This document shows, one piece after another, positions 1-25,998 of a stretch of 25,998 bases of DNA. The translations under genes and the position numbers were made by a program. The stretch is from Pirellulales bacterium (GTDB lineage: Bacteria; Planctomycetota; Planctomycetia; Pirellulales; Thermoguttaceae). The DNA lies in assembly GCA_030607895.1 (NCBI GenBank), contig JAUWJC010000001.1, forward strand, positions 1 to 25,998. Reading direction: 5' to 3'. Below the pieces are notes generated by a model. The model was not told where the DNA came from and did no database searches. It saw nothing but the letters and a program-made list of their open reading frames with translations. Numbering within the stretch: position 1 is the first letter of the stretch; each line of letters starts with the position of its first letter.

Positions 1-52
1 GAAGGCGGACGTTTGCGGCTTCGCAACTCTCAACTCTCAACTCTCAACTCTA
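1..52. repeat. Composite element: GAAGGCGG unit + TTGCGGCTTCGC core + (AACTCTC)n heptamer array abutting the trpS stop
   Basis: Core TTGCGGCTTCGCA at 13-25, followed by AACTCTC repeats up to the trpS stop (CTA at 50-52). The same core recurs at 3668, 17256, 17299(rc), 19310 and 21646(rc). Confidence 0.9.
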
Positions 53-3613: not shown

Positions 3614-4429
3614 TCAAGCCAGACCGTAGAATCCGTAGAATCGGAAAGGCGGAAGGGGGCATCCACACGCTTGCGGCTTCGCAACTCTCAACTCGCAACC
3701 CTCAACTCTCAACTGTACGCGCTGGCGGAGTTTGTTGACCACGGCGACGAACTCCTTGCGGTTTTCGCCGAGTTTCTCGGCCGTTTTGGGCTCGGGGCCG
3801 GCCACGTAGTCCAGCACTATTCTTTCAGCATCGACGAACTCGTCGCCAATGTCGGCCATTTCCGCGGCGATCTCCGGCGGGATGTTCGTCACGCCGTTGG
3901 CGTCGCCGTGCAGGAGATCCCCTTGGTGAACGACCAATCCGCCCACGCGAACCGGCAGGCCAATGTGCAGTATGTGGCAGTAGGCGTGCGAGCAGATGGT
4001 CGAGCCGGTGAAGACCGGGTACTCCAGTTCGTGGACCTGTTGCAGGTCGCGTCCGCCGCCGCTGGTTATCAGCCCGGTCGAGCCGAATGACTTGTAGACC
4101 GAGCACATTACCTCGCCAAAGGTGGCCCCGACCGGCGGATCGTCGAGATCCTCGAAGACCACCACGGCCGAGCCCGGCAGGTCCTCGAAGGTCTTCACCT
4201 GGTCCATCATGCTCCCGTAAGCATCGCCGCCGACCGGTGGGGCGCTCGAGCGGAAAGCGGCCGTGGCGGCAAAGCCCACCATTGGCGGCAGCTCCGGGAA
4301 ATTTGCCCGTACCCGGTGGTCCATGAATCCGCAAGTCCGCGGCCGGACATCGAACAGTTCGATGATGTTGCAGATCGTCGGGGTGTCGAATTGTGCCAGT
4401 TTTTCGAGGGATTGGGGTGTTATGGTCAT
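3614..4429 (-). CDS. RraA family protein (HMG/CHA-aldolase-like); C-terminus extended by read-through into a repeat
   Basis: FDTPTICN, MVGFAAT, FGEVM, GGGRD (conserved Arg-Asp) and GDLLHGDANGV motifs; AGGA RBS. The last ~33 codons are repeat-derived. Confidence 0.85.
   Translation of the reverse strand: MTITPQSLEKLAQFDTPTICNIIELFDVRPRTCGFMDHRVRANFPELPPMVGFAATAAFRSSAPPVGGDAYGSMMDQVKTFEDLPGSAVVVFEDLDDPPVGATFGEVMCSVYKSFGSTGLITSGGGRDLQQVHELEYPVFTGSTICSHAYCHILHIGLPVRVGGLVVHQGDLLHGDANGVTNIPPEIAAEMADIGDEFVDAERIVLDYVAGPEPKTAEKLGENRKEFVAVVNKLRQRVQLRVEGCELRVAKPQACGCPLPPFRFYGFYGLA
3643..3714. repeat. Composite element: GAAGGCG/GAAGGGG units + CGCTTGCGGCTTCGCA core + AACTCTC array
   Basis: Core at 3668-3683 and array AACTCTC AACTCGC AACCCTC AACTCTC. 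A 9-mer CCGTAGAAT x2 lies just upstream (3624-3641). Confidence 0.85.
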
Positions 4430-9517: not shown

Positions 9518-9934
9518 GGGCGCAGGAACGGGTTTGTAGTTTCGTGATTGTCCAGCCATCTGAAGAATAACTCTCGAGCAATTCGCCGGACTACGCCCGT
9601 TTACGGGCGTTTCCGCCGAAGGCGGTATTAGGCCCGTCCTTTAGGACGGGTTGCGGGTTGGGGAAGCCAGTGTTTTTGCCCTCTGTTTTCCTCCGGAGTC
9701 CCGGTTACGGGGCTTCTCGCTCCCGGCTTAAGCCACTACGGCGAGAAGGCCCGTAAACGGGCCTCGACAGTTGCCGTGATGGTGAGAACTCCCGAACTTC
9801 TCGCAACTCTCCAACCCGGCATGAATGCCGGGCCTAATACCACCTTCGGCGGGCCGGGCCGTAAACGGCCCTTGGCGATCTCGTCTTGATAAGGGTCGGT
9901 ATCCGCTACGGCGCGCAAACCCGCTCCTGCACCC
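9518..9934. mobile_element. MITE-like element with terminal inverted repeats, flanking direct repeat and an internal palindromic REP array
   Basis: 19-bp TIRs GGGCGCAGGAACGGGTTTG (9518-9536) / CAAACCCGCTCCTGCACCC (9916-9934), 2 mismatches. GTTCTTGAG is duplicated at 9509-9517 and 9935-9943. Internal 24-bp IR at 9613-9636 / 9829-9852. Confidence 0.65.
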
Positions 9935-11128: not shown

Positions 11129-11199
11129 GGAGGTTGCGCTGCAAGGGGCAGCAAGCCGGCCGGAAACCGGCCAGTCCACGGAAGCGGAGGAGGCATATG

Positions 11200-14100
11200 A
11201 TGGCGCCGAGAAGGGAAAAAGGGACCAGGTTTAATTTGCCGGAACGGCCCGAAGGGTGCTTCGCACAAATTAAACCTGGTCCCTTTTTCCCCCTGGAAAT
11301 CGCGCTGGCGCTGTTGACAGCAGCGCTTTGGTCGACATGCGCGCACGGGCCAGTTGGGCCAATTGTGGCCAGCGGCCAGGTGCTCGGTCAAATGACGCCG
11401 GCTTCCGGCACTGCGAAGGCGGAAGACGAGTTCGTGGAGAACGTCTTCCTTCCTGCCGAGCGTACTGCCTTGAAACAACTCTCCAAAGCCCGAGAGTTGC
11501 TCCAAACCGGCCGCCATGCTGAAGCGGTGCGCTATTTGGGGGCGATTTTGGAGGGTCCGGAAGACTATTTTTTCCAACCGGACCGCAACGCGCCACTGCA
11601 CCGCAGCCTGAAGGCGGAGGCCCGGCAGTTGATCGGCCGGATGCCTCGCCGGGGCCTGGATTTGTACGAACTTCAGTCTGGCGCCCGGGCGCGACAGATG
11701 CTTGATGAGGCGGCTGCCGACGGCGACGCCATGCGTCTGGCCGAGATCTCCCGACGCTTCTTTCACACTCGGGCCGGCTACGAGGCAACATTCCTGTTGG
11801 GGCTCTATCATCTCGACCATGAACGTCCGCTGGCCGGGGCACTGACACTCGGCCGGCTGCAGGACGCATCTGGCACGGCCGAGTTGTTTGAACCGGCTCT
11901 GTCTTTGGCGATTGCCACTTGTTGGCTTCGCGCTGGCATGCCGGAAAGGGCCCAAGAGGTTCTTGCGGCCTTATCCGAGCGCAACCCAAACTCCACCGTG
12001 AGGATTGCAGGCAAAGATGTCCCTTTGCCCGGCAAGCAGGAGAAGCTCGTGGAGTGGCTCACTGGCGCGATCGGTCCACTGCACCAGGCCGCGCCCATCC
12101 AGCCGGACAGGTGGACAATGGTCCGGGGCAATGCTTCGCGAAACGCGTCCAGTTTGGGCGGTGCCCCGCTGATGAACATGCGGTGGCACGTTTCGTCCAC
12201 GGATCATCCGATGGTGGACGGGATACTCGTGTATCTCGATCGGATATTCAAGGAGCAAAGCGTCCCGGTCTTGCCCGGACTACATCCGTTGGCGGTTGAC
12301 GACGTTGTGCTGATGCGAACGGCGCGAAATCTGTTGGCCGTGGACTTTGCGACCGGCAAGCGGCTCTGGGAAGTGCCGACCGACGATTTGCCTGGAAAGC
12401 TACTGCTTTCCGGCCAGAAAGTCGCGAGCGGTTATTCGCAGTTGGCGATGGGGTTGAGCCAGCGGATATGGGAAGATGCCACCTACGGCACGATGACGAG
12501 CGACGGGCGGCTCGTTTTCAGCATCGAGGATTTGGGGCTCGGTCTGGCCGTGCGCAACTCGCGGCATATCATCATTAACGGCCGCCGCCAATTGAATCCC
12601 GACTGGCCGAAGCCGTACAACCGATTGGCGGCCCACGACATTCTGACGGGCAAGCTGGTTTGGCACGTGGGCGGATCGGTCGACGAGTTCGATCTGCCGG
12701 AAGCCGGGGCGTTTTTTCTCGGGCCCCCGCTGCCTTTGATGGGTCGGCTCTACGTCCTGGCCGAGGTCAAGGGCGAAATCCGCCTGCTGGCCCTGGACGG
12801 CCAATCTGGAAAAACATTCTGGTCGCAGCAATTGGCTGTCGCCCAGCGTGATATCCTCCACTCGCCGCTCAGGCGATGTGCCGGCGTGTCGCCGTCCTAT
12901 GCTGACGGGGTTCTGGTGTGTCCCACCGCCAACGGGGCGATTGTCGGCGTCGAGATGGCCACCCGGTCGCTGTTGTGGGGATATCGCTACGCCCGGAGCC
13001 CACAATTCCGCCACCGCCCACATGGATTCATGCGATTTGGAATCCTGCAGAATCCAAGCACGACGGGACGTTGGTCGGATGCCAATGCTATCCTGGTTGA
13101 CGGCCGGGTGCTGGTCAGTCCTATCGAATCGGACTATTTGCATTGCCTGGCCTTGATCGACGGCGAGCGCATCTGGCGGCACAAACGGGAAGACGATCTT
13201 TTCGTGGCCTGCGTGTGTCAGGGTAACGTGGTGCTGATCGGCCGCGAAAAGGGCCGCGCCCGGACGCTGGCCGACGGCACTCCGGCCGGGGACGGCCGTA
13301 CCGTCGAACTCCCGGAAGGCGCCGTGCCGAGCGGTCAAGGGTTTCTCGCCGGCAATAGTTACTACCTGCCGCTTAGTACCGCCGAGATCCTCGCTATCGA
13401 CCTGGCTACCGGCGCCCCGGTTGGAACGTCCAAGTCGCGCGACGGCAGCGTGCCGGGAAACCTCGTCTGTTACCGGGGGAACGTCATCTCGCAAGGCACC
13501 GGCGGTGTAGAGGCCTTCTACCAGTTGGATGCGCTTAAAAAACAAATCGAGCAGACACTCCGGCGGCAGCCCGACGACCCCGACGCACTGGCGCTCCATG
13601 GCGAGATATTGCTCGATTCGGGCAAGCTGGCGGAGGCGGTTGACACACTGCGCCGCTCCTACAAGCTGGCACAAGACCCCAAAACACGCGAACTGCTGCG
13701 CGAGGCGCTACTGGACGGCTTGCGGCAGGACTTCAAGGCCAGTCGCTCCAGCGCCGCCCAAATCGAGCAGCTCATCGACCGGCCAGACCAGCGGGCAGAA
13801 TACCTGCAATTGATGGCTGCCGGGTTGCAGGCCTCGGGCCAGTGGCAAGCGGCCTTGGAACACTACGTGAAACTGATCGAGTTGGATCAGGACCATCACC
13901 GCCTGGAGCGGGTTGACCGGTCGCGTTCGGTGCGTTGGGACCGTCGAATCCGAGGGGAGTTGACGGAGCTTCGCGAGGCCGCTCCGGCTGAAGTGAAGGC
14001 CGAGATCGACAGGATGGTCGAGGCGAGGCTTGCCGCGGCGGTCGAGGCCACGGGCCCCGAGCCCCTTGGGCGGTTCCTCGACTACTTCGCCGACCACCCG

Positions 14101-15978
14101 ATCGCTCGGCAGGCTCGAGAGCACCTGGTTCGCCGTCTGAAGCAAGCGGACCGCCTGTTGGAGGCGGAGTTCGTTCTTCGGGAGATGGAGCGCTCGGCGG
14201 AGCCGGAAGGTGTTGCGGCCGCGGTGGTCGAACTGGCCGCGCTGTTGCGAGAGGCCAGGCTTCCGAAAGACGCGGCCGTCTGCTACAAGCGACTCCGCGA
14301 CGAGTTGGCCGATGTGGTCTGTCCCGGCGGCAAGACCGGCCGGCAGCTTGTCGAGGCATTGCCGGACGACGATCCGGTTAAGAAATGGCTCGGGCCCGCC
14401 CCATCGTGGCCTGCCGGCCTGGTCGAAACCAAGAAGGTCAAAACCCGAACTCCCCGATCTTCGAGCCAAGGCAGCTTCGCGCTCGACTACCTGGGAAATC
14501 GAGCCCCGTTCTTCTCCGACAAGCGCGTCGAGTTCAATCAGAGCCGGCGAGTGGCCGTGGGACGCGACGGCTACGGGAACCGGCTGTGGGAAACGGCACT
14601 AGCCCAGCGGAACAACCGGCACGGCTTCCCATTTAATAGGGGTTGGTCCCGCGTGGCCGCACGCGGACACTTGTTGCTTCTGTCGATGGGGTACAAGGTT
14701 ATTGCAATCGACGCGCTTCGCGACGGCTCGCCCGAGCGGCTCTGGTCGCAAGACTTGATCGAACCGGTATTCACCGGGTCGAAGCCTCCACTGCCGCGCA
14801 TCGCGGCGATCAACAACATGCCGTTTGGCATGCCGGCTTTCCACATGATGCGGCGCTACGCCAACACGATAAGCTCGTTGGGGGCGGTTACCGACCGGTA
14901 CGCCTGTTACTGGAGATTTCGCAGTTGCGTGGCCGCCGATCCGTTGACCGGCGAAGTGCTTTGGATACGACGCGACGTTACGCCGGGTAGCGCTCTTCTG
15001 GGAGACGATCAATATGTTTTCGCGGCACCGCCGGACGGGACCGAGGCGATGGTCTTTCAGGCGGCCGACGGCAAGCTGCTGGGTAAGCGAAAGGTCCCTT
15101 CCCCGGAATATCGCAAGGCAATCCTCGGCCGAAACGTGTTGGTCTGGCGCCTGGAGGACAACCGGCAAGTGCTGGATTTCTTCGATCCCTGGCAACAGAA
15201 GTCGCTTTGGCCGCCACGCAAGTTCTCGCCCGAGGCGAAACTTTGGGTGGCCGGCGAGCAAGCCGTGGGGGTATTCGAGCCCGACGGGCATTTCGTACTC
15301 GTTGCGCTGTCCGACGGCCGCACGATTGTCGACGCCAAACTCGAGCCGGAAGATCCCTTGTCGGAGATATTCGTACTTGCGTTGGGCGATCAATATATTC
15401 TCGTCACTCACAGCCGGCCGGCGAACATGGGTGGGATCAGACAGCCGAATCCGGTACCGCGGGTGTTGTCCAGGCCGATCATTCGCGGCCGGGCGTACGC
15501 CTTCGACCGCCAAGGCAAGAAGCTCTGGCCGGAACCGGTCGCTATCGAAAACCAACAACTGCCGCTGACTCAACCGGAACAGTTACCCATCGTTACTTTC
15601 GCTTGCCAGACATATGATCCGAAGGTCCAAGGCTCCAAGCGGCATAGGGTATCGGTGCTGTGCATCGACAAGCGCAACGGTCGGGTAGCCTTCCGCGACG
15701 AAATGGAGAACTCGACCAGCGTGTTCGAGCTTACCGGCAACCCCCGGAAGAAGACCGTCACGTTGGCTCTTCAGCGATACACCATTAACATGACATTCAC
15801 CGACAAGCCGCCCGCGCCGGTGTCGGAAACGAACAAGTCCAAGGCCGCGTCATCACAAAAGGGAAAGCTACCCAAGGCCACCGGGGCCATATTGAAAGCA
15901 CTGAAAAAGGGAGTGCAAGGGATTGCCCCCTTGGAAGCGATCGAGGAGGCCATCGAGAATTTGGAGATCGGGAAGTGA
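11200..15978 (+). CDS. Large secreted TPR + PQQ/BamB-like beta-propeller repeat protein (~1590 aa)
   Basis: GGAGGAGG RBS (11186-11193) before ATG 11200; hydrophobic signal segment; repeated D..TGK.LW propeller motifs interspersed with helical TPR-like segments (ALALHGEILLDSGKLAEAVDTL). Confidence 0.88.
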   Translation: MAPRREKGTRFNLPERPEGCFAQIKPGPFFPLEIALALLTAALWSTCAHGPVGPIVASGQVLGQMTPASGTAKAEDEFVENVFLPAERTALKQLSKARELLQTGRHAEAVRYLGAILEGPEDYFFQPDRNAPLHRSLKAEARQLIGRMPRRGLDLYELQSGARARQMLDEAAADGDAMRLAEISRRFFHTRAGYEATFLLGLYHLDHERPLAGALTLGRLQDASGTAELFEPALSLAIATCWLRAGMPERAQEVLAALSERNPNSTVRIAGKDVPLPGKQEKLVEWLTGAIGPLHQAAPIQPDRWTMVRGNASRNASSLGGAPLMNMRWHVSSTDHPMVDGILVYLDRIFKEQSVPVLPGLHPLAVDDVVLMRTARNLLAVDFATGKRLWEVPTDDLPGKLLLSGQKVASGYSQLAMGLSQRIWEDATYGTMTSDGRLVFSIEDLGLGLAVRNSRHIIINGRRQLNPDWPKPYNRLAAHDILTGKLVWHVGGSVDEFDLPEAGAFFLGPPLPLMGRLYVLAEVKGEIRLLALDGQSGKTFWSQQLAVAQRDILHSPLRRCAGVSPSYADGVLVCPTANGAIVGVEMATRSLLWGYRYARSPQFRHRPHGFMRFGILQNPSTTGRWSDANAILVDGRVLVSPIESDYLHCLALIDGERIWRHKREDDLFVACVCQGNVVLIGREKGRARTLADGTPAGDGRTVELPEGAVPSGQGFLAGNSYYLPLSTAEILAIDLATGAPVGTSKSRDGSVPGNLVCYRGNVISQGTGGVEAFYQLDALKKQIEQTLRRQPDDPDALALHGEILLDSGKLAEAVDTLRRSYKLAQDPKTRELLREALLDGLRQDFKASRSSAAQIEQLIDRPDQRAEYLQLMAAGLQASGQWQAALEHYVKLIELDQDHHRLERVDRSRSVRWDRRIRGELTELREAAPAEVKAEIDRMVEARLAAAVEATGPEPLGRFLDYFADHPIARQAREHLVRRLKQADRLLEAEFVLREMERSAEPEGVAAAVVELAALLREARLPKDAAVCYKRLRDELADVVCPGGKTGRQLVEALPDDDPVKKWLGPAPSWPAGLVETKKVKTRTPRSSSQGSFALDYLGNRAPFFSDKRVEFNQSRRVAVGRDGYGNRLWETALAQRNNRHGFPFNRGWSRVAARGHLLLLSMGYKVIAIDALRDGSPERLWSQDLIEPVFTGSKPPLPRIAAINNMPFGMPAFHMMRRYANTISSLGAVTDRYACYWRFRSCVAADPLTGEVLWIRRDVTPGSALLGDDQYVFAAPPDGTEAMVFQAADGKLLGKRKVPSPEYRKAILGRNVLVWRLEDNRQVLDFFDPWQQKSLWPPRKFSPEAKLWVAGEQAVGVFEPDGHFVLVALSDGRTIVDAKLEPEDPLSEIFVLALGDQYILVTHSRPANMGGIRQPNPVPRVLSRPIIRGRAYAFDRQGKKLWPEPVAIENQQLPLTQPEQLPIVTFACQTYDPKVQGSKRHRVSVLCIDKRNGRVAFRDEMENSTSVFELTGNPRKKTVTLALQRYTINMTFTDKPPAPVSETNKSKAASSQKGKLPKATGAILKALKKGVQGIAPLEAIEEAIENLEIGK
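11215..11289. repeat. 75-bp palindromic element inserted in frame in coding sequence (copy 1)
   Basis: Perfect 25-bp IR 11214-11238 / 11266-11290 around a 27-nt core; encodes EKGTRFNLPERPEGCFAQIKPGPFF. Confidence 0.9.
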
Positions 15979-17246
15979 GACGCAACATGCCTAATAGCGC
16001 GGTTTTAGCTACTACCGCGAAGCGGTTAGACAACAAAGCCCGGGGTCGCGCAGCGCACCCCGGGTTACGATGCCATCCCATCTGGCCCAAACCCCGAAGG
16101 GGTTTTACAACGTCCCGTTTTCGGCGGATGGTTAGCAGGATTTGTAAAACCCCTTTGGGGTTTAGGCCATCTTCTGTGACTCTCGCCCCGGGGTGCGCTT
16201 TGTTGTTTAACACCTTCGGCGTAAGACATCTGCTAACGCTATTCGCCCTGCTGGCCGCGGCACTTTGCCTATGCGACGCTCGGGTATTTGCCGGGTCGAA
16301 CAATCCCGACGTCCAACGGGCGGTCGGCCGTGGATTGGAGTGGCGGACGAATCGGCAGTCGCGGTTGGGCCACTGGACGGCCAACGACGGGCGGTACCCA
16401 ACGGCAATGACCGGCATGGCGGGCATCGCCTTTCTCTCGGAAGGATCGACCACCAACCAGGGGAAGTACGCGCCGCAAATCCGCCGCGCCGTCGACTACC
16501 TTGCCGGTCGAAGCCGCTCGAACGGCTTGATCGGCGATCCGACGCGCGACGACCGTTACACTTACGGCCACGGGTTCGGAACGCTCTTCCTCTCGCAAGT
16601 GTTGGGTGAGGAAGAAGACATCGACCGCCGCGAACAGTTGGTCGACGTATTGACCCGCGCGGTGGTCTTCACCGGCCGCGCTCAAACCAAAGAAGGCGGT
16701 TGGGGATACGTCAGCGCGAAGGACGGCCACGGGTTCGACGAGGGCTCGACGACGATCACTCAGGTGCAAGCACTTCGCGGGTGCCGGAACGCCGGGATTC
16801 CCGTCCCCACGGAAATCGTCGACAAGGCGATCGGCTACATCCGCAAATGCACCCGGCCCGACGGCGGAGTCCAGTACAACATCCGCGGCGGCAACGGCCG
16901 GCCGGCAATAACCGCCGCGGCCATCGCCTGCCTGTTCAACGCCGGCGACTACGATAGCGAGTACGTACCCAAGCTGCTGGGGTACTGCAAAAAGAACCTG
17001 TCGAACATCTCCAGCCGCGGGTTCGGCCATTGGCACTACGCCCATTACTACTACTCCCAGGTCCGCTACCGCGAGGGCGGCAAGGAGTGGGAAGAGTATC
17101 GCGACAAACTACACGCCCGGCTCCTCTCGGAAGCAGGTCCCGACGGCTCCTGGAACCAGGGCTACATCGGACCGGTGTATACCACGGCCATCAACTTGAC
17201 CATATTGCAATTGGAAAACGGCACGTTGCCGATTTATCAACGCTAG
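15975..17246 (+). CDS. Secreted prenyltransferase/squalene-cyclase-repeat (alpha/alpha barrel) protein; N-terminus interrupted by a repeat
   Basis: GTG overlaps the upstream TGA (GTGA). QW-like repeats QSRLGHW, QTKEGGWGY, RPDGGVQY and GPDGSW; hydrophobic LLTLFALLAAALCL signal; no DxDD cyclase motif seen. Exact start uncertain. Confidence 0.8.
   Translation: MRRNMPNSAVLATTAKRLDNKARGRAAHPGLRCHPIWPKPRRGFTTSRFRRMVSRICKTPLGFRPSSVTLAPGCALLFNTFGVRHLLTLFALLAAALCLCDARVFAGSNNPDVQRAVGRGLEWRTNRQSRLGHWTANDGRYPTAMTGMAGIAFLSEGSTTNQGKYAPQIRRAVDYLAGRSRSNGLIGDPTRDDRYTYGHGFGTLFLSQVLGEEEDIDRREQLVDVLTRAVVFTGRAQTKEGGWGYVSAKDGHGFDEGSTTITQVQALRGCRNAGIPVPTEIVDKAIGYIRKCTRPDGGVQYNIRGGNGRPAITAAAIACLFNAGDYDSEYVPKLLGYCKKNLSNISSRGFGHWHYAHYYYSQVRYREGGKEWEEYRDKLHARLLSEAGPDGSWNQGYIGPVYTTAINLTILQLENGTLPIYQR
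16013..16223. repeat. ~210-bp multi-hairpin REP/MITE-like element within the 5' end of the CDS
   Basis: End hairpins TACCGCGAAGCGGTTA / TAACACCTTCGGCGTA; CCCGGGGTCGCGCAGCGCACCCCGGG; inner IR AAACCCCGAAGGGGTTTTACAA (16089-16110) / TTGTAAAACCCCTTTGGGGTTT (16142-16163). Confidence 0.8.
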
Positions 17247-17255
17247 GGGTTTAGG

Positions 17256-17315
17256 CCGCTTGCGGCTTCGCACCGCCACGCCATCAACACCAAAAGTGTG
17301 CGAAGCCGCAAGCGG
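17256..17315. repeat. Inverted doublet of the 17-bp core CCGCTTGCGGCTTCGCA
   Basis: 17256-17272 and 17299-17315 are perfect reverse complements with a 26-nt spacer. Confidence 0.9.
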
Positions 17316-18407: not shown

Positions 18408-19344
18408 CGTAATCAAGCGTATCTCGCGGCTGGAACTGCGCGCCCGCCACGTGGTCGAGGGATTTCTCTCGGGCATGCACCGCAGCCCGTACTTCGGCCA
18501 GTCGGTCGAGTTCCTCCAGCATCGCGAGTACGCCTGGGGCGACGACCTGCGCGACGTGGATTGGAAGGTCTGGGCCAAGCAGGATCGCTACTACGTTAAG
18601 CAGTACGAAGAGGACACCAACCTCCGCGCGACGCTGCTGGTCGACGTTTCCGGCAGCATGCGCTACGGCGCCGGCACGATGAATAAGTACGAGTACGGTT
18701 GCACCATCGCGGCCTGCCTGGCCTACCTGGTGCTGCGTCAGCACGACGCCGTCGGATGTATCGCCTTTGACGATGACGCGCGGATGACCGTCCCCCAACG
18801 CACCAAGCGCAACCATATCGATTCGATCGTCAAGGCCCTCGATATCAGCAAGCCACGGGAAAAGACCGACTTGTACCAGGTCCTCCGCAAGGCGGCCGAA
18901 AGCTATCCGCGGCGCGGCATGATGATTCTGGTTTCCGACCTCTTGGTCGAGCGCGACGGATTGTTTCGCGGACTGCGGCTATTGCGCAGCCGGGGTCACG
19001 ACATAATGGTACTGCACGTGATGGACGACGACGAGTTGGATTTCCCCTTCAGCGGCCCCACGCGGTTCGAGGGGCTGGAGTTGCCGCAACATCTAAGTTG
19101 CAATCCCCGCGCTCTGCGTGAGGGATACCTCGCCGCTTTGGGAAATTATCTCGAAGAAGTCCGACGCGGCTGCGTAAGCCACGGTGTCGACTACTCGCTA
19201 GTGCGGACCAGCCAGCCGTTGGACGCCGCACTGGCCGCATACCTGAGCAACCGTTTGGGAAGGCGGAAGGCGGAAGGGGGAAGGGGGAAGGGGGAAGGCG
19301 GAAAGCGTGCCGCTTGCGGCTTCGCACAAATCACTGACCACTAG
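18376..19344 (+). CDS. DUF58 domain protein (vWA-like MoxR partner); C-terminus runs into a repeat
   Basis: [36 protein letters not shown] and DVSGSM; overlaps the moxR 3' end. Confidence 0.92.
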
Positions 19345-19392
19345 CCACTGACCACTGGCCACTATCCACTATCCACTGCCCACTGGCCACTA
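19260..19392. repeat. Composite element: (AAGGCGG/AAGGGGG)n + CCGCTTGCGGCTTCGCA + (CCACTNN)n
   Basis: Purine heptamers at 19260-19302, core at 19310-19326, CCACTGA/CCACTAG/CCACTGG/CCACTAT units up to ~19392. Confidence 0.9.
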
Positions 19393-19397
19393 CCCAA

Positions 19398-21599
19398 ATG
19401 CCAACATTTGTCCACTCAGCCCTGCTCGGCGGAATGCTGATCGTCGGCGTGCCCGTGTTGATCCACCTGATCAACATGCTGCGCCACCGGCGCGTGGACT
19501 GGGCGGCCATGGAGTTCCTGCTCGAGAGCCAGAAGAAGAACCGCACCTGGATCATCTTCAAGCAGCTTCTGTTGTTGTTGATGCGGCTGGCGGCCGTCGC
19601 GACGATTGTGCTGGTGGTGGCACAACCCCTGTTGCGCAACCAATTGGGCGATCTGTTCGGCGCCAGCAAAACGCATCACATCCTGCTCTTGGACGACAGC
19701 TTCTCGATGTCGGACCGCTGGGCCGATACCAGTGCCTTTGACGAGGCCAAGAAGGTCATCGGGCGGATCGGCACCGAGGCCGCCCGGCAGGTTCAGCCGC
19801 AAACCGTCACCCTGTTGCGGTTCTCCCAGGCCGGCCGCACCGCACGCGGCACGCAACCCGACTTGCTGGAAGAACCGGTCGGCCCCAATTTCGTCGACCG
19901 GTTGCACGAGGCCCTCGGTCCGCTTGCCGCCTCCCAAATGCCCGCCGGCCCCAACCAGGCGCTGGAGGCGATCGGGCAATTGCTCGGCACATCCGACGAC
20001 GAGCACCGCATCGTCTACCTGATCTCCGATTTCCGCGCCCGGCAGTGGGAGGAACCGGCCGATCTCAAAACGCGGCTCCAGCACCTTGCCGACAGCGGGG
20101 CGAAGATTCACCTGGTCAACTGTGTCGAAGCGGCACGGCCCAACCTGGCAATTATGTCGCTTCGGCCGATGACGGGAACTCGGGCGGCTGGAGTCCCTCT
20201 GTTCATGGAAGTGAGCGTCAAGAACTTCGGCACCGCGCCGGTTAAGGAAGTGGCGGTCCTGCTCGAGGAGAACGGTCATCCCCGGCCGGCGGTGACAATT
20301 GCCGAGATACCGCCGGGCCGAACGGCCAGGCAGCGGTTCCAGGTAAATTTTCCCACGGCCGGCCAACACCGGATAACCGCCCGCCTGGAAAGCGACGCCG
20401 TGGCGGCCGACAACTTCCGCTACTCGGTTATCGACTTCCCCTTGGACGTGCCCGTCCTGCTGGTCGACGGCGGCGCGGAGGCCCTCGACGCGCGTTTCCT
20501 CAGCGCCGCTTTGGCGCCCGGCGGATCGGTTCGGACGGGCATCAACCCCCGGATCGAAACGCCCAGATACCTGAGTCTCAACCCGCCCGACGACTTCCAC
20601 GCCATTTACCTGGCGAACGTCGACCGGCTGGACGCCTCGGCGATCGAGGCGCTGGAGCAATACGTCAACGGCGGCGGCGGCGTGGCGGTATTCCTGGGGG
20701 AACAGTGTCGCGGCAAGTTCATCAACGAGCAATTGTATCGGGATGGGAAGGGTTTCTTCCCGTTGCCGTTGGCCGGGCGGCGGGAGTTGCTCCTCGACCG
20801 CCTCGAGCGGGCTCCCGACATGGAAGTGACCGGGCATCCGATCTTTCGCGTGTTTTCCGGCAAGCGCAACAGCTTTATCTCGATGGTGCTGGTCCAGCGT
20901 TACTTCGCCGCGGCGGAAGGCTGGAAGCCCGATCCCGACTCGACCACGCGCGTGATTGCCCGGCTCCGCAACGGGGCCCCGCTGGCGGTCGAGCGCAGCT
21001 TTGGCGAGGGTCGCGTGGTGGTTTTCCTGACGACGGCCGCCCCGCTCTGGAACAACTGGGCGCGGAACAACCCCAGCTTCGTGGTCGCCGTGCAGGAGTT
21101 GCAGGCGTACTTGTCCAAGCGGCCGTCTGCCGAGATTTTGCGCGCGGTAGGTTCACCGCTGGAATTGGAAATCGATCCGGCCCGCTACAAGCCGCAGGTC
21201 CGCTTCGCCACGCCCGAGCAGAACGCCGCCGCATCGGCCACCGTCGACGCGGTTCCCACGCCCGACGGCCCCCTGGCTGCCAGCTTTGCCGCGACCGACA
21301 CGAGCGGCATCTACGAAGCCCGGCTCACCGCGGCCGACGGAACGGCCGAAACCCGGTCTTTCGCCTTCAATGTTGAGGCCGACGAGGGCAACCTCAAGGC
21401 GATGGAAGGTCCGCGGTTGGCCGCACGGCTCGAAGGCGTTCCGTACGAGTACGAGCAGGCCGCCGTCTTCCAGTACGCCGCGCACGAGTTGGCCGGATAC
21501 AACCTCAGCGAGGCGCTGTTGTACTTCCTGATCCTACTCTTGATCGGCGAGCAAATCCTGGCATGGTCGGCCAGCTATCATCCACCCTCGCTTGGTTGA
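19398..21599 (+). CDS. BatA N-terminal double-TM domain + vWA domain membrane protein
   Basis: PVLIHLINMLRHRRVDWAAMEFL (BatA N-terminal signature), MIDAS DDSFS, C-terminal TM helix ending LLLIGEQILAW. Confidence 0.9.
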   Translation: MPTFVHSALLGGMLIVGVPVLIHLINMLRHRRVDWAAMEFLLESQKKNRTWIIFKQLLLLLMRLAAVATIVLVVAQPLLRNQLGDLFGASKTHHILLLDDSFSMSDRWADTSAFDEAKKVIGRIGTEAARQVQPQTVTLLRFSQAGRTARGTQPDLLEEPVGPNFVDRLHEALGPLAASQMPAGPNQALEAIGQLLGTSDDEHRIVYLISDFRARQWEEPADLKTRLQHLADSGAKIHLVNCVEAARPNLAIMSLRPMTGTRAAGVPLFMEVSVKNFGTAPVKEVAVLLEENGHPRPAVTIAEIPPGRTARQRFQVNFPTAGQHRITARLESDAVAADNFRYSVIDFPLDVPVLLVDGGAEALDARFLSAALAPGGSVRTGINPRIETPRYLSLNPPDDFHAIYLANVDRLDASAIEALEQYVNGGGGVAVFLGEQCRGKFINEQLYRDGKGFFPLPLAGRRELLLDRLERAPDMEVTGHPIFRVFSGKRNSFISMVLVQRYFAAAEGWKPDPDSTTRVIARLRNGAPLAVERSFGEGRVVVFLTTAAPLWNNWARNNPSFVVAVQELQAYLSKRPSAEILRAVGSPLELEIDPARYKPQVRFATPEQNAAASATVDAVPTPDGPLAASFAATDTSGIYEARLTAADGTAETRSFAFNVEADEGNLKAMEGPRLAARLEGVPYEYEQAAVFQYAAHELAGYNLSEALLYFLILLLIGEQILAWSASYHPPSLG

Positions 21600-21702
21600 G
21601 AGTTGAGAGTTGATAGTTGAGAGTTGAGAGTTGATAGTTGAGAGTTGCGAAGCCGCAAGCGGAAACCAAATCCTAAATCAGAAATCAGAAATCCTAAATC
21701 AG
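21595..21702. repeat. Composite element in reverse orientation: (AGTTGAG/AGTTGAT)n + TGCGAAGCCGCAAGCGG + (AAATCCT/AAATCAG)n
   Basis: The array begins at the BatA TGA stop, the core (rc) is at 21646-21662, and the second array ends at the next ATG. Confidence 0.9.
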
Positions 21703-24249: not shown

Positions 24250-25998
24250 ATGGCAACGACCGACATCCAACAAGAAGAACCGAGACTGGCGCCGGAAATC
24301 CAGGCCATGCTCCGCGCGCTGCGCCGCCGGGTGAGACAGTACGTCTGGGTCGAGGGGCTTACCACGGCCATCGCTTCCCTTGGCGTGGCGTTCTGGGGTA
24401 GCCTGGCCATCGATTGGTTCTTCGAGCCGCCGCCCGTCGTTCGAGGTTTCATCTTGGGACTGGTCGGATTGGCACTCGCCGGCGTGCTCGTCAAGCTGAT
24501 AGGCCGTCGAGCGTTCGTTCGCATGACCGACAGCAACATGGCCATGTTGCTCGAACGCCGCTTCCCTCGGCTTGACGACAGCCTGCTTACGGCAGTCGAT
24601 CTGATCGGCCGCGGCACGGATCACGAGGACTACGACCCGCTGATGCTGGTTCGCACCTGCCGTCAGGCCGCCGCCAATATTGTCGGGCTTCGGTTGGGTA
24701 AGGTGTTCAACCCGGTCCCGCTCCAGCACGGTATCACGGCCGCCGTGCTGATGACTGCCTCGGTGCTCCTATTCGCCGTAACGTTGCCCGACGCATTCGG
24801 CACGTGGACCCGGCGGAGCCTCGCGCTTTCGGAAGAGCTTTGGCCGCGTCGCACGCGATTGGTGGTCGAAGGGTTCGAGGACGGCACCGCCAAGGTCGCG
24901 CGAGGCGCCGACCTCGACCTGGTCGCCAAAGCCGACACGAACATGCCCCTGGTGCCTAAGGTGGTTCACGTCCGCTATCGGACCGAGGGCGGGGCGCGCG
25001 TCCGCGAGGCGATGAATCGGGAAGGCACGGCCGAGCGGGGCAAGGACGGATTCCAGGAGTACTCGTACACCTTCCGCGGCGTGCTGGTGCCGATCCGCTT
25101 CGACGTTGTCGGCGGCGACGACCGCGTGCGCGACCTCAGGATCGACGTGGTCGAGAGCCCAACGATAGTGCAGATGGTGCTGGACTTCGAGTTCCCCAAG
25201 TACATGGGCCGCGCACCGCGCACCGTGCCCGTTACCGGGGTCATGCAGATCCCGCTGGGAACCAACGTAACGATCCGTGCGAAGGCCAACAAGGAGTTGG
25301 TCCGGGTGCAGGTTGATTCGGCCCTGGAAGACGGAGCCAAAAAAGGGACCAGGTTTAATTTGTGCGAAGCACCCTCCGGGCCGTTCCGGCAAATTAAACC
25401 TGGTCCCTTTTTCGGCCCCGGCTCCGATCGCCACGACTTCCGGTACGCACTGGGGAGTCTTCGCAAAGACAAGACGCTGCTGTTCACGCTGTTCGATGCC
25501 GACGGAATCAGAAGTCGCGAGCCGGTCAGGCTGGCTCTGGCCACGGTGGCCGACGAGCCGCCCGAGTTGGCGGTCCAGCTTGCCGGCATCGGCAGCGCCG
25601 TCACGGCCCATGCCCGGCTGCCCGTCGAGGGCCGCGTTACCGACGACTACGGCATCGCCCGAGTTTGGTTCGAACACGTGGTCGATCAAAAGAAGCCCGG
25701 AACCCGGCTTGTCCAATCGCCCGACGGCAATCCCACCGACGTTAAGTTGGACGACGCCCTGGAGGTTCGCGATTTGAAGCTCACGCCGGGCCAGAAGCTG
25801 CTACTCTCGGTCAAGTCAGCCGACCGGTTCGATTTAGCCAAGCAGCCGAACATTGGCAGCAGTCAACGGTGGCTGTTGGACGTCGTCACGCCCGAGCAAC
25901 TTCGCACCATGCTCCAATCGCGCGAGTTGGTGCTTCGCCAGCGATTCGAGATGATCATCCACGAAGTGACCGACACGGGCGACTCGCTCCTGCGAATC
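24250..25998 (+). CDS. Large membrane protein, DUF4175-like (partial, runs off the window)
   Basis: Frame is open from ATG 24250 to the window end (translated by hand, not in the ORF track). N-terminal TM helices, LERRFPRLDDSLLTAV, Ig-like segments and a DDYG motif. Confidence 0.8.
   Translation, partial: MATTDIQQEEPRLAPEIQAMLRALRRRVRQYVWVEGLTTAIASLGVAFWGSLAIDWFFEPPPVVRGFILGLVGLALAGVLVKLIGRRAFVRMTDSNMAMLLERRFPRLDDSLLTAVDLIGRGTDHEDYDPLMLVRTCRQAAANIVGLRLGKVFNPVPLQHGITAAVLMTASVLLFAVTLPDAFGTWTRRSLALSEELWPRRTRLVVEGFEDGTAKVARGADLDLVAKADTNMPLVPKVVHVRYRTEGGARVREAMNREGTAERGKDGFQEYSYTFRGVLVPIRFDVVGGDDRVRDLRIDVVESPTIVQMVLDFEFPKYMGRAPRTVPVTGVMQIPLGTNVTIRAKANKELVRVQVDSALEDGAKKGTRFNLCEAPSGPFRQIKPGPFFGPGSDRHDFRYALGSLRKDKTLLFTLFDADGIRSREPVRLALATVADEPPELAVQLAGIGSAVTAHARLPVEGRVTDDYGIARVWFEHVVDQKKPGTRLVQSPDGNPTDVKLDDALEVRDLKLTPGQKLLLSVKSADRFDLAKQPNIGSSQRWLLDVVTPEQLRTMLQSRELVLRQRFEMIIHEVTDTGDSLLRI
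25339..25413. repeat. 75-bp palindromic element inserted in frame in coding sequence (copy 2, opposite orientation)
   Basis: 23-bp IR 25340-25362 / 25390-25412. The core is the reverse complement of the copy 1 core with 1 mismatch; encodes KKGTRFNLCEAPSGPFRQIKPGPFF. Confidence 0.9.

Follow-up and report, generated by a model that had tools for sequence, protein, structure and literature searches.

Two copies of a palindromic element in one window

The window, by which we mean the whole 25,998-nucleotide stretch of planctomycete DNA that was analysed, contains two genuine genes that each carry a copy of one 75-bp element, stop-free and in phase, in opposite orientations. The features of interest are as follows.

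11200..15978, forward strand: host gene 1, about 1590 aa, a PQQ/BamB-like beta-propeller with TPR repeats, whose N-terminal signal peptide is split by copy 1
11213..11291, no strand assigned: copy 1 as a full palindrome, GG/CC termini included
11215..11289, forward strand: copy 1, 75-bp core (24-nt arm, 27-nt centre, 24-nt complementary arm)
24250..25998, forward strand: host gene 2, a DUF4175-like all-beta protein that continues past the window edge
25336..25416, no strand assigned: copy 2 in full, 81 bp (27 codons), ending in GCC/GGC as is typical for the majority subfamily
25339..25413, reverse strand: 75-bp core of copy 2, whose centre is the GGA variant; it falls in frame within a linker of the protein from host gene 2

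Host gene 1 is preceded by a Shine-Dalgarno sequence (GGAGGAGG, at 11186-11193) and has ATG codons at 11197 and 11200; numbered from the latter, copy 1 takes up codons 6-30. Host gene 2 is the final gene of a MoxR-DUF58-BatA-vWA cluster. That a single element occurs here twice, as the preliminary description had claimed, was borne out by a repeat search of the window, in which 11215-11288 paired with 25340-25413 (74 nt, 99% complementary); with both read in the same orientation, two mismatches remain, a G/A polymorphism within the centre and the outermost base. Each has perfectly complementary arms of 24-26 bp around an asymmetric 27-nt centre, which in copy 1 consists of three 9-nt mini-palindromes (CCGGAACGG CCCGAAGGG TGCTTCGCA). 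Within the ORFs 11134-15978 and 24250-25998 both cores lie in phase 0 and contribute 25 codons, encoding EKGTRFNLPERPEGCFAQIKPGPFF in copy 1 and KKGTRFNLCEAPSGPFRQIKPGPFF in copy 2, and the ends of these peptides barely depend on orientation because the arms are self-complementary; on these points, too, the original account was accurate. Its extent of 75 bp holds for the core, but the true element runs 2-3 bp further, ending in GG/CC in copy 1 and in GCC/GGC in copy 2. Copy 1 belongs to a minority subfamily, apparently the older one, in which the GG/CC flank type is linked to a GAA variant of the centre. The GCC/GGC flanks were considered as a possible target motif and rejected, since flank type goes with the variant inside the element and GG/CC termini are found in relatives.

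Copy 1 indeed interrupts a signal peptide, where it separates the charged n-region from the hydrophobic core; orthologues run from M..RPR straight into the h-region. The placement of copy 2 in a linker was likewise correct: the orthologues vary there, with unrelated and shorter sequence, and in an AlphaFold2 model of the host (mean pLDDT 83) the insert, at about 40, is the sole disordered loop. The 25 residues are absent from orthologues in at least 11 other genera; orthologues lack the segment both at the two window sites and in the case of an oxidoreductase encoded on another contig (C179). The alignments show gaps of 23-25 residues whose boundaries are not base-exact, the orthologues coming from other genera at 45-70% identity and the insertion points falling in variable loops, and neither transposition events nor excision products nor clean empty sites were observed. 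An ancestral protein motif was rejected because identical DNA is also found at intergenic sites and in four peptide versions. A strain of about 95% identity, from a separate study, has the element at both window sites. No 75-nt skip appeared among the joints listed for Logan contigs, none of which spans an insertion site because the contigs break within the repeat.

Genome-wide distribution of the element

The genome searched is a fragmented draft Planctomycetota MAG (4.2 Mb, 74% complete), in which genes were called with a home-made codon-usage caller at 77% coding density. It contains about 317 full copies with both arms, in orientations of 163:156 and mostly 96-100% identical, and the 20-nt arm occurs 674 times, so the recurrence of the window palindrome is far beyond chance. 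At about one copy per 13 kb, density alone predicts two in a 26-kb window; the presence of both copies in one operon therefore carries no meaning, and the link to an "envelope operon" that had been suggested is incidental to a genome-wide family.

As DNA, the element's hairpin has a folding energy of -30 to -35 kcal/mol (z of about -8 to -9), and its perfect 26-bp RNA stem one of -50 to -54 kcal/mol. An Rfam search with the element gave only sub-threshold, generic matches to miRNA hairpins, and it thus belongs to no known RNA family. We observed no target-site duplication, in that, over boundary offsets of 0 to 6, direct repeats did not rise above chance, except for the GC at the element's own ends, which is trivially palindromic.

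Copies inside genes are restricted in frame and length

Of the 317 copies, 121 (38%) fall wholly within called ORFs, as opposed to 73% of random intervals, a twofold depletion in genes, and 100 of these 121 are at least 40 codons from either ORF end. When coding signal was required on both flanks, 73 copies were in frame, four were frameshifted and one was in the stop phase, in which the element presents two TAA codons. Phase use in this strict set was 51 : 22 : 1 (p = 7e-12 against the one third expected in the stop phase), and the second reading frame (KKGPGLIC...KLNLVPF) is commoner genome-wide than that of the window copies. Length matters as well: 110 of 260 copies of 75 bp are genic versus 6 of 48 copies of 76 bp (p = 7e-5), and five of those six are only 14-137 nt from the ORF start. 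The hosts are long, recognisable genes, including a UvrD/AddA-type helicase, FtsK, a GltD/NfnB-like oxidoreductase, a Met-zincin, SSF and N6_Mtase; they are unrelated to one another and carry the element in both orientations and two frames, which gives four different peptides. Arms are perfect in 77 of 93 genic copies, a decay no greater than that of intergenic copies. Judging from sequence, the phase restriction and the near-exclusion of 76-bp variants from genes imply that the genic copies are translated. The inserted peptides would probably be neutral to their hosts, although a perfect 26-bp RNA stem in a coding region could impair expression, and some hosts may be crippled.

A Y1 transposase gene framed by the arms of the element

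The arms of the element also occur at a transposase locus:

G000:C208:434-1263: unit of a Y1 (HUH) tyrosine transposase of RAYT/TIRYT type, a single gene

The ORF (C208:486-1190) matches PF01797 with 46 bits and has the HWH and YVERNP motifs; its best and only NCBIfam match is the REP-associated tyrosine transposase NF047646, at 66.5 bits and thus below the cut-off of 80, and its sole PDB match is E. coli TnpA-REP (4ER8). In the C-terminal extension of about 100 aa Pfam gave only a sub-threshold AT-hook (E = 0.06) and recognised no HTH. Inverted arms at positions 435 and 1251 of the contig flank the gene and are identical to those of the element over 20 nt; a 78%-identical orthologue on metagenome contigs retains the same arms, while the nearest paralogue is 59% identical. 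About ten paralogous Y1 genes, in this genome and in relatives, are each placed precisely, at equal distance, between inverted repeats of their own, of the AAAAGGGG(A/T)C type, and only the arm described here has been amplified, to its 674 occurrences. A second locus (C546) has a 114-bp deletion derivative of the transposase unit, and no other long element with these ends was found in the genome.

We therefore consider it likely that we are dealing with a non-autonomous "TIR doublet", similar to a REPIN, which a TIRYT moves in trans, and that its genic survivors are translated as extra residues. Two inverted terminal repeats of about 24 nt enclose the conserved 27-nt centre, and the Y1 enzyme, whose gene has the same terminal repeat, would mobilise such doublets in trans without duplicating the target, the substrate probably being single-stranded DNA in hairpin form. 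Insertion would occur both within and between genes, with selection then purging the harmful cases. The survivors would be those that keep the frame (75 or 81 bp, not 76 bp), avoid the phase with two TAA codons and occupy sites where an insert does little harm, for example linkers, surface loops and the n-regions of signal peptides. At such sites they would be transcribed and translated into 25-27 additional residues that are largely disordered, with much Gly and Pro.

The conserved centre and related elements

Related elements across Planctomycetota combine a near-invariant centre of 27-29 nt with co-varying arms. The centre recurs without a single change in Pirellulales, Thermoguttaceae, Gemmataceae, Planctomycetaceae and one Phycisphaerae MAG, with 10 copies in the cultured Stieleria sedimenti, while the inner 5-6 nt of the arms change in step with the local transposase. 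Covariation was seen at 23 of 28 arm pairs and is strictly Watson-Crick; G-T pairs are almost absent, which argues against selection at the RNA level. We did not accept this covariation as proof of a selected hairpin, because two terminal inverted repeats bound by one protein co-vary anyway.

No 27-nt centre adjoining a transposase gene was found; the one match at a transposase locus (L070) is separated from the gene by about 1.2 kb. The idea that the centre is a remnant of the transposase unit was rejected, as it is part of the unit at no transposase locus, and since none was found beside a transposase gene it is not explained by simple descent from that unit. We would suggest, as a tentative possibility and not as an expectation, that the centre marks an undescribed phylum-wide class of Y1-mobilised elements and is itself a functional module. 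It may, for example, be a junction or hairpin acted on by the transposase, or a site for a host factor. Were there such a class, then with a quarter to a third of copies in frame it would continually supply the unusually large proteins of Planctomycetota with new loops, and on a major scale.

Alternative explanations

The copies could instead have been retained for a benefit to the host, whether through hairpins in RNA or DNA, acting as attenuators, mRNA stabilisers or sites for RNase III or gyrase, or through peptides that serve as useful modules. The near-invariance of the centre across Planctomycetota families while the arms change, the preservation of genic arms, the very stable stems and the sharing of both window insertions with the 95%-identical strain would all fit such retention. 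However, we consider it unlikely, since unrelated proteins receive four different peptides from both orientations and two frames, the copies are twofold depleted in genes relative to random, orthologues do well without the insert, and no Rfam family is matched; moreover, high identity among copies is equally expected from a recent burst.

If the element were a classical MITE that depends on a DDE-type insertion sequence with the same terminal inverted repeats, the Y1 gene would be a mere passenger or target between two copies. The element does have terminal inverted repeats, its Watson-Crick-only covariation fits a single protein that binds both ends as double-stranded DNA, and in a genome that is 74% complete the insertion sequence could be missing. 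Nevertheless this origin appears very improbable, given that no boundary tested has a target-site duplication, that the Y1 unit is the sole long element found with these ends, that some ten paralogous Y1 genes are precisely framed by their own inverted repeats of the same type, that the arms are kept in the 78%-identical orthologue, and that the layout agrees with the published TIRtron/TIRYT architecture (PMC3733652).

The notion that the elements are never translated, being removed from DNA or transcript beforehand or lying in dead genes or genes that start downstream (copy 1 then being a 5' leader), can almost be dismissed: copy 1 is just five codons past the start, many N-terminal "intragenic" REPs are really extragenic according to Di Nocera et al. 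(PMC3733652) and ribosomes translate a 26-bp RNA stem poorly, but splicing or dead genes give no reason for the scarcity of stop-phase and 76-bp copies in ORFs, about 100 copies lie deep in long ORFs with coding signal on both sides, and, for copy 1, the Shine-Dalgarno sequence upstream of the element is strong and is followed by an ATG, the sole in-frame start past it is a TTG at 11314 in the middle of the hydrophobic core, orthologues begin M..RPR like host gene 1, and 15 of the 24 listed strain differences downstream are at third codon positions.

Significance

With a doublet mobilised in trans by the Y1 enzyme as the preferred reading, one genome amounts to a natural selection experiment, in which frame-preserving and frame-breaking lengths, three phases and both orientations have been tried and the survivors show what the proteome tolerates. 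Roughly estimated, between a fifth and a third of the hits that preserve the frame have persisted, every one of them in a linker, a loop or the n-region of a signal peptide. Coding insertions like those of Rickettsia palindromic elements (RPEs) are thereby tied to an identifiable type of transposase, a link that is missing for Rickettsia, and "group 1" RAYTs/TIRYTs, thought to be poor amplifiers of repeats, can build up a repeat family exceeding 300 copies. In practical terms, the inserts inflate planctomycete MAGs and fragment them, because contigs break inside the inserts, and they mislead the prediction of start codons and signal peptides. They also create spurious "homology" between unrelated proteins, with about 70 such matches in homology searches. 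The cultured carrier Stieleria sedimenti makes proteomic and biochemical work feasible.

Comparison with known systems

Like PATEs derived from IS200/IS605 and like DDE-type MITEs, the element is a short non-autonomous derivative with only the ends required by a transposase. PATEs, however, have differing left and right subterminal hairpins and no terminal inverted repeats, and DDE MITEs make target-site duplications, of which the element has none.

REPIN-RAYT systems were reportedly described by Nunvar in 2010 and by Bertels & Rainey in 2011. They share with the present family inverted doublets of a short repeat that form one long hairpin, hundreds of near-identical copies, a cognate Y1 transposase gene that is single-copy and has the repeat on its flanks, and no target-site duplication. 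In contrast, the arm here (AAAAAGGGACCAGGTTTAATTTG) lacks a GT[AG]G foot and has an internal palindrome of only 3 bp, and so is not a small GTAG-tagged hairpin; the centre is the most conserved part, whereas REPINs have a variable spacer and a conserved REP; 38% of copies (121/317) are inside ORFs, whereas REPINs are described as extragenic; and the transposase fails the curated REP-associated model (66.5 versus 80 bits).

As for RPEs (Ogata et al. 2000), which according to a later account (PMC10969869) are about 150 bp long and have no known transposase, the likeness drawn in the preliminary description stands as a behavioural analogy; here a Y1 gene of RAYT/TIRYT type is tied to the element. 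RPEs and the intragenic REP dimers of Opitutus terrae are also palindromic repeats that lie in frame, whichever way round, in a wide range of unrelated genes, adding 20-30 residues at fold-tolerant sites that include N-terminal positions. The element behaves like RPEs, which differ in reported size and occur in another host phylum, but the likeness is one of behaviour and does not imply common ancestry, and the O. terrae repeats are GTAG-type REPs (PMC3733652, Additional file 3), unlike ours. Here, moreover, one homogeneous 75/81-bp family yields at least 100 in-frame insertions, with a built-in control in the 76-bp variant that is kept out of genes.

The closest parallels are the TIRtrons and the TIR repeats associated with TIRYTs (Di Nocera et al. 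2013, PMC3733652), which correspond to TnpA_Y1 subclass 2.1 of Quentin et al. 2018 (10.1101/279083) and to RAYT group 1 of Bertels et al. 2017 (10.1101/119735); the planctomycete R. baltica was named as rich in TIRYT-type genes (PMC3733652). Common to both are a Y1/HUH gene bracketed by terminal inverted repeats instead of REP hairpins, repeat copies dispersed as inverted dimers, and several paralogous genes with a repeat of their own. The elements of relatives and the paralogous repeats read GGGGACAG or GGGGTCAG, fitting or nearly fitting the published TIR motif GGGG[AT][CG]A[CG], from which the amplified arm of this genome, GGGACCAG, departs. Differences are the 674 arms as against about 12 occurrences of flanking 16-mers in group 1 (10.1101/119735), dimers that enclose a phylum-wide, near-invariant centre of 27-29 nt lying outside the transposase unit, and the one third of copies that are in frame in genes; in addition, subclass 2.1 has a C-terminal HTH (Bac_DnaA_C / HTH_23 / HTH_28), whereas in the extension of the present enzyme a Pfam HTH was not detected. 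As in-frame REP dimers and TIRYT repeats were both already described in 2013 (PMC3733652), the element family is a further case of a known phenomenon, notable mainly for its scale.

The element and its copies in the genome

The preliminary description had taken two stretches of the window for a single 75-bp element in opposite orientations, and a repeat search of the window confirmed this, the two being 99% complementary over 74 nt. They and their host genes are:

11215-11289 (+), copy 1 of the element
25339-25413 (-), copy 2 of the element
11200-15978 (+), host gene 1, containing copy 1
24250-25998 (+), host gene 2, DUF4175-like, containing copy 2

Both copies consist of perfectly complementary arms of 24-26 bp enclosing an asymmetric 27-nt centre; folded as single-stranded hairpins they reach -30 to -35 kcal/mol (DNA) or -50 to -54 kcal/mol (RNA), with z from -8 to -9, and an Rfam search with the element returned no matching family. 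On either strand two of its three reading frames are open and the third holds two TAA codons. Each copy sits in phase 0 of a long ORF and contributes 25 residues, (E/K)KGTRFNL...QIKPGPFF, which bears out the claim of stop-free, in-frame inserts of 25 codons with nearly the same peptide ends in either orientation.

A genome-wide search, tabulated by phase, orientation and coding location as had been proposed, was made in the draft genome (G000; 4.21 Mb in 655 contigs, 74% complete, 60% G+C), of which the window is contig C286. A census by arm search gave about 317 full copies, balanced in orientation (163:156) and for the most part 96-100% identical to the query. With one copy every 13 kb, a 26-kb window is expected to hold two, so that the operon common to both hosts, which had been pointed out, is incidental.

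Table. Element copies by length of the centre (arm search of the draft genome)
Centre; element; copies
27 nt; 75 bp; 260
28 nt; 76 bp; 48
21 nt; 69 bp; 6

The consensus runs 2-5 bp past the 75-bp core: 171 of 308 copies are flanked by GCC...GGC, and a minority, copy 1 included, by GG...CC or GA...TC. Since the minority type is confined to copies whose centre is the GAA variant (6/45, versus 0/143 for the GGA variant) and elements of other genera have GG/CC termini, the flanking bases belong to the element, whose majority form is 81 bp, or 27 codons. No target-site duplication was found at element boundaries in this genome.

Copies inside genes

For coding status we used a codon-usage score trained on the genome's own long ORFs, with a strict test requiring same-frame coding signal on both flanks. 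Among 279 assessable copies 73 passed this test, which is conservative in that it calls only 51% of random positions genic; four were apparently frameshifted and one lay in the stop phase (1/74, p = 7e-12). The 73 comprise 51 in the frame KKGPGLIC...KLNLVPF and 22 in the frame EKGTRFNL...QIKPGPFF (p = 9e-4), each open frame holding copies of both orientations. By a simple greedy gene caller (77% coding density), 121 of the 317 copies are wholly inside ORFs, 100 of these at least 40 codons from either end, and random 75-bp intervals fall inside ORFs in 73% of cases. Length matters as well: 110/260 of the 75-bp copies are genic, versus 6/48 of the 76-bp copies (p = 7e-5), and five of these six sit 14-137 nt from the called start and are therefore probably upstream of the true one. 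Genic copies match the others in arm integrity (perfect arms in 77 of 93). Had the element been eliminated ahead of translation, or were the hosts dead genes, there would be no bias of phase or of length; from these genomic patterns we infer that genic copies are translated.

A single 76-bp copy (contig C12, 827-902) lies deep in an ORF; there the reading enters as the KKGPGLIC frame and exits as ...CFAQIKPGPFF, the extra base being absorbed within the element.

Host genes and insertion sites

Host ORFs range from 275 to 1590 codons; among them are a UvrD/AddA-type helicase-nuclease, FtsK, a GltD/NfnB-like flavoprotein, a Met-zincin, a sodium:solute symporter and an N6 DNA methylase. Fifteen hosts have Pfam matches, and in 12 of them the insert falls outside the matched domains.

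Host gene 1 encodes a protein of some 1590 aa that combines a PQQ-propeller with TPR repeats. A Shine-Dalgarno sequence, GGAGGAGG, precedes the ATG at 11197/11200, and at the N-terminus the 25 inserted residues separate MAPRR from PLEIALALLTAALWSTCAHG. In other genera the orthologues run from M..(S)RPR.. directly into the hydrophobic segment, in agreement with the earlier view that copy 1 splits a signal peptide. The sole in-frame start 3' of the copy is a TTG at 11314, within the hydrophobic core. Third codon positions account for 15 of the 24 differences (our count) listed 3' of copy 1 against a ~95%-identical strain, which is consistent with purifying selection on host gene 1.

Copy 2 had been placed in a linker; in 11 orthologues (45-64% identical) the space between the conserved VQVDS and FRY motifs is taken by a shorter linker of unrelated sequence. 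An AlphaFold2 model built with those orthologues has a mean pLDDT of 83 and shows an all-beta fold plus a C-terminal helix. Only the insert, which lies between strands 150-157 and 196-203, drops below pLDDT 50. Two orthologues of a further host, an oxidoreductase on contig C179, lack the segment (65-66% identical over the aligned segment), and solved homologues are gapped there, between a DAVFLAxG strand and an xDALxFL helix. The proposed ortholog alignment thus finds the segment missing at all three sites, with boundaries approximate at base level because the available orthologues are all from other genera.

Searches of the genome with the two host proteins of the window each returned about 70 spurious "homologues", all from translated element, which makes it a practical trap for annotation and clustering.

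A transposase gene between element arms

One pair of "solo" arms, inverted and lying about 800 bp apart, flanks an intact ORF of 235 aa (contig C208, 486-1190), and these arms are identical to those of the element over 20 nt. The encoded protein matches PF01797 (Y1_Tnp, 46 bits); the sole NCBIfam match is the REP-associated tyrosine transposase model (66.5 bits, below the cut-off of 80) and the sole PDB match E. coli TnpA-REP (4ER8), with HWH and YVERNP aligning to the catalytic motifs. Its relatives are labelled Planctomycetia or Planctomycetota; a 78%-identical orthologue on metagenome contigs retains identical arms, and homologues in five relatives are bracketed by repeats of their own. The genome holds about 10 paralogous Y1 genes (31-59% identical), six of which (C208 and, as loci L067-L071, those on C183, C227, C292, C599 and C431) each lie between inverted repeats of their own, 19-25 nt long. 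Amplification is confined to the C208 arm, which occurs 674 times, versus 5-28 for the other Y1 repeats. A 114-bp unit without the gene (C546, 1172-1286; L065) has 28 nt in common with one end of the C208 unit and 26 nt with the other, and resembles a mobilised derivative with an internal deletion. We infer that the C208 enzyme mobilised the element.

Distribution and age

By BLAST, at 80-88% identity, the element occurs in 14 of 24 further genera from the family and in 2 of 16 further families from the order, with a few to about 50 copies each. Relatives keep the outer arm and the centre, and the inner 5-6-nt arm cassette changes along with its complement. In an alignment of 41 sequences 23 of 28 arm pairs have changed on both sides and 94.5% of cells are Watson-Crick pairs. 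G-T pairs are almost absent. The pattern fits two ends that share one binding protein, or a palindrome at the DNA level, better than selection on an RNA structure. Of 65 such foreign copies, 19 are likewise in frame within coding sequence by the conservative coding test.

The exact 29-mer of the centre is found in at least 99 contigs, labelled, among the matches listed, Pirellulales, Pirellulaceae, Thermoguttaceae, Gemmataceae, Planctomycetaceae and Phycisphaerae; the cultured Stieleria sedimenti carries 10 copies. The centre is part of none of the transposase units examined. The exact 29-nt centre is also present on a 2.9-kb contig (CAZRES010000229.1) of a MAG labelled Desulfobacteraceae, reflecting either a binning error or transfer beyond Planctomycetota.

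Near-identical DNA occurs in cold-seep, marine-sediment and brine metagenomes. In the ~95%-identical strain, from another study, contigs begin or break off within the arms at both window sites (11267 and 25359); both insertions are therefore older than the split from that strain. No element-bridging contig was found among metagenome contigs, and no 75-nt skip among the joints listed. In a brine metagenome (run X4) a related-strain contig starts at about 11290, just past the element, which could be a presence/absence or end-sequence polymorphism; in run X3 the start is about 23 nt inside the arm.

Other repeats in the window

9-51, 3667-3723, 17256-17298, 19286-19402, 21595-21662, repeat family with core GCTTGCGGCTTCGCA
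9597-9868, 57-nt inverted repeat pair, 81% complementary, 158 nt apart, in the gap after a DHDPS-family gene
15975-16223, second non-autonomous element, in the N-terminal coding portion of the following gene (squalene-hopene-cyclase-like protein)

In the first family the core is fixed, with arrays of 7-nt units on either side; allowing one mismatch, it has 461 occurrences genome-wide and is commoner than the 75-bp element. A classical IS200-type tnpA (contig C288, 3515-3859) has flanks, left and right, that match the hairpins of the element at 15975-16223 (ACCGCGAAGCGGTT..., GCCC.GGGTCGCGCAGCGCACCC.GGG and AACCCCGAAGGGGTTTTACAA), so that this element looks like a PATE-type deletion derivative.

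Comparison with known systems

The element is a TIRYT/RAYT-linked hairpin repeat. The likeness to Rickettsia palindromic elements drawn in the preliminary description holds as an analogy; in-frame palindromic elements in Rickettsia were described by Ogata et al. (2000), according to the summary in PMC10969869. In Opitutus terrae about 70 intragenic REPs and REP dimers encode 7-50 residues, with the caution that N-terminal cases may be extragenic (Di Nocera et al., PMC3733652), and REPINs are otherwise treated as extragenic (PMC8049555). Our literature search found no paper describing the planctomycete family. Its interest lies in scale, a single family supplying about 100 or more in-frame insertions, and also in the clean internal controls for selection and the constant centre.

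TIRtrons consist of TIRYT genes and TIRs with GGGG[AT][CG]A[CG] (Di Nocera et al. 2013, PMC3733652), and the architecture of the C208 unit, a Y1 gene between inverted repeats, matches theirs. They have been equated with TnpA_Y1 subclass 2.1 and with what Bertels et al. call RAYT group 1 (Quentin et al., 10.1101/279083). In that group the flanking 16-mers have only about 12 occurrences genome-wide (Bertels et al., 10.1101/119735), against which the population in the present genome is unusually large.
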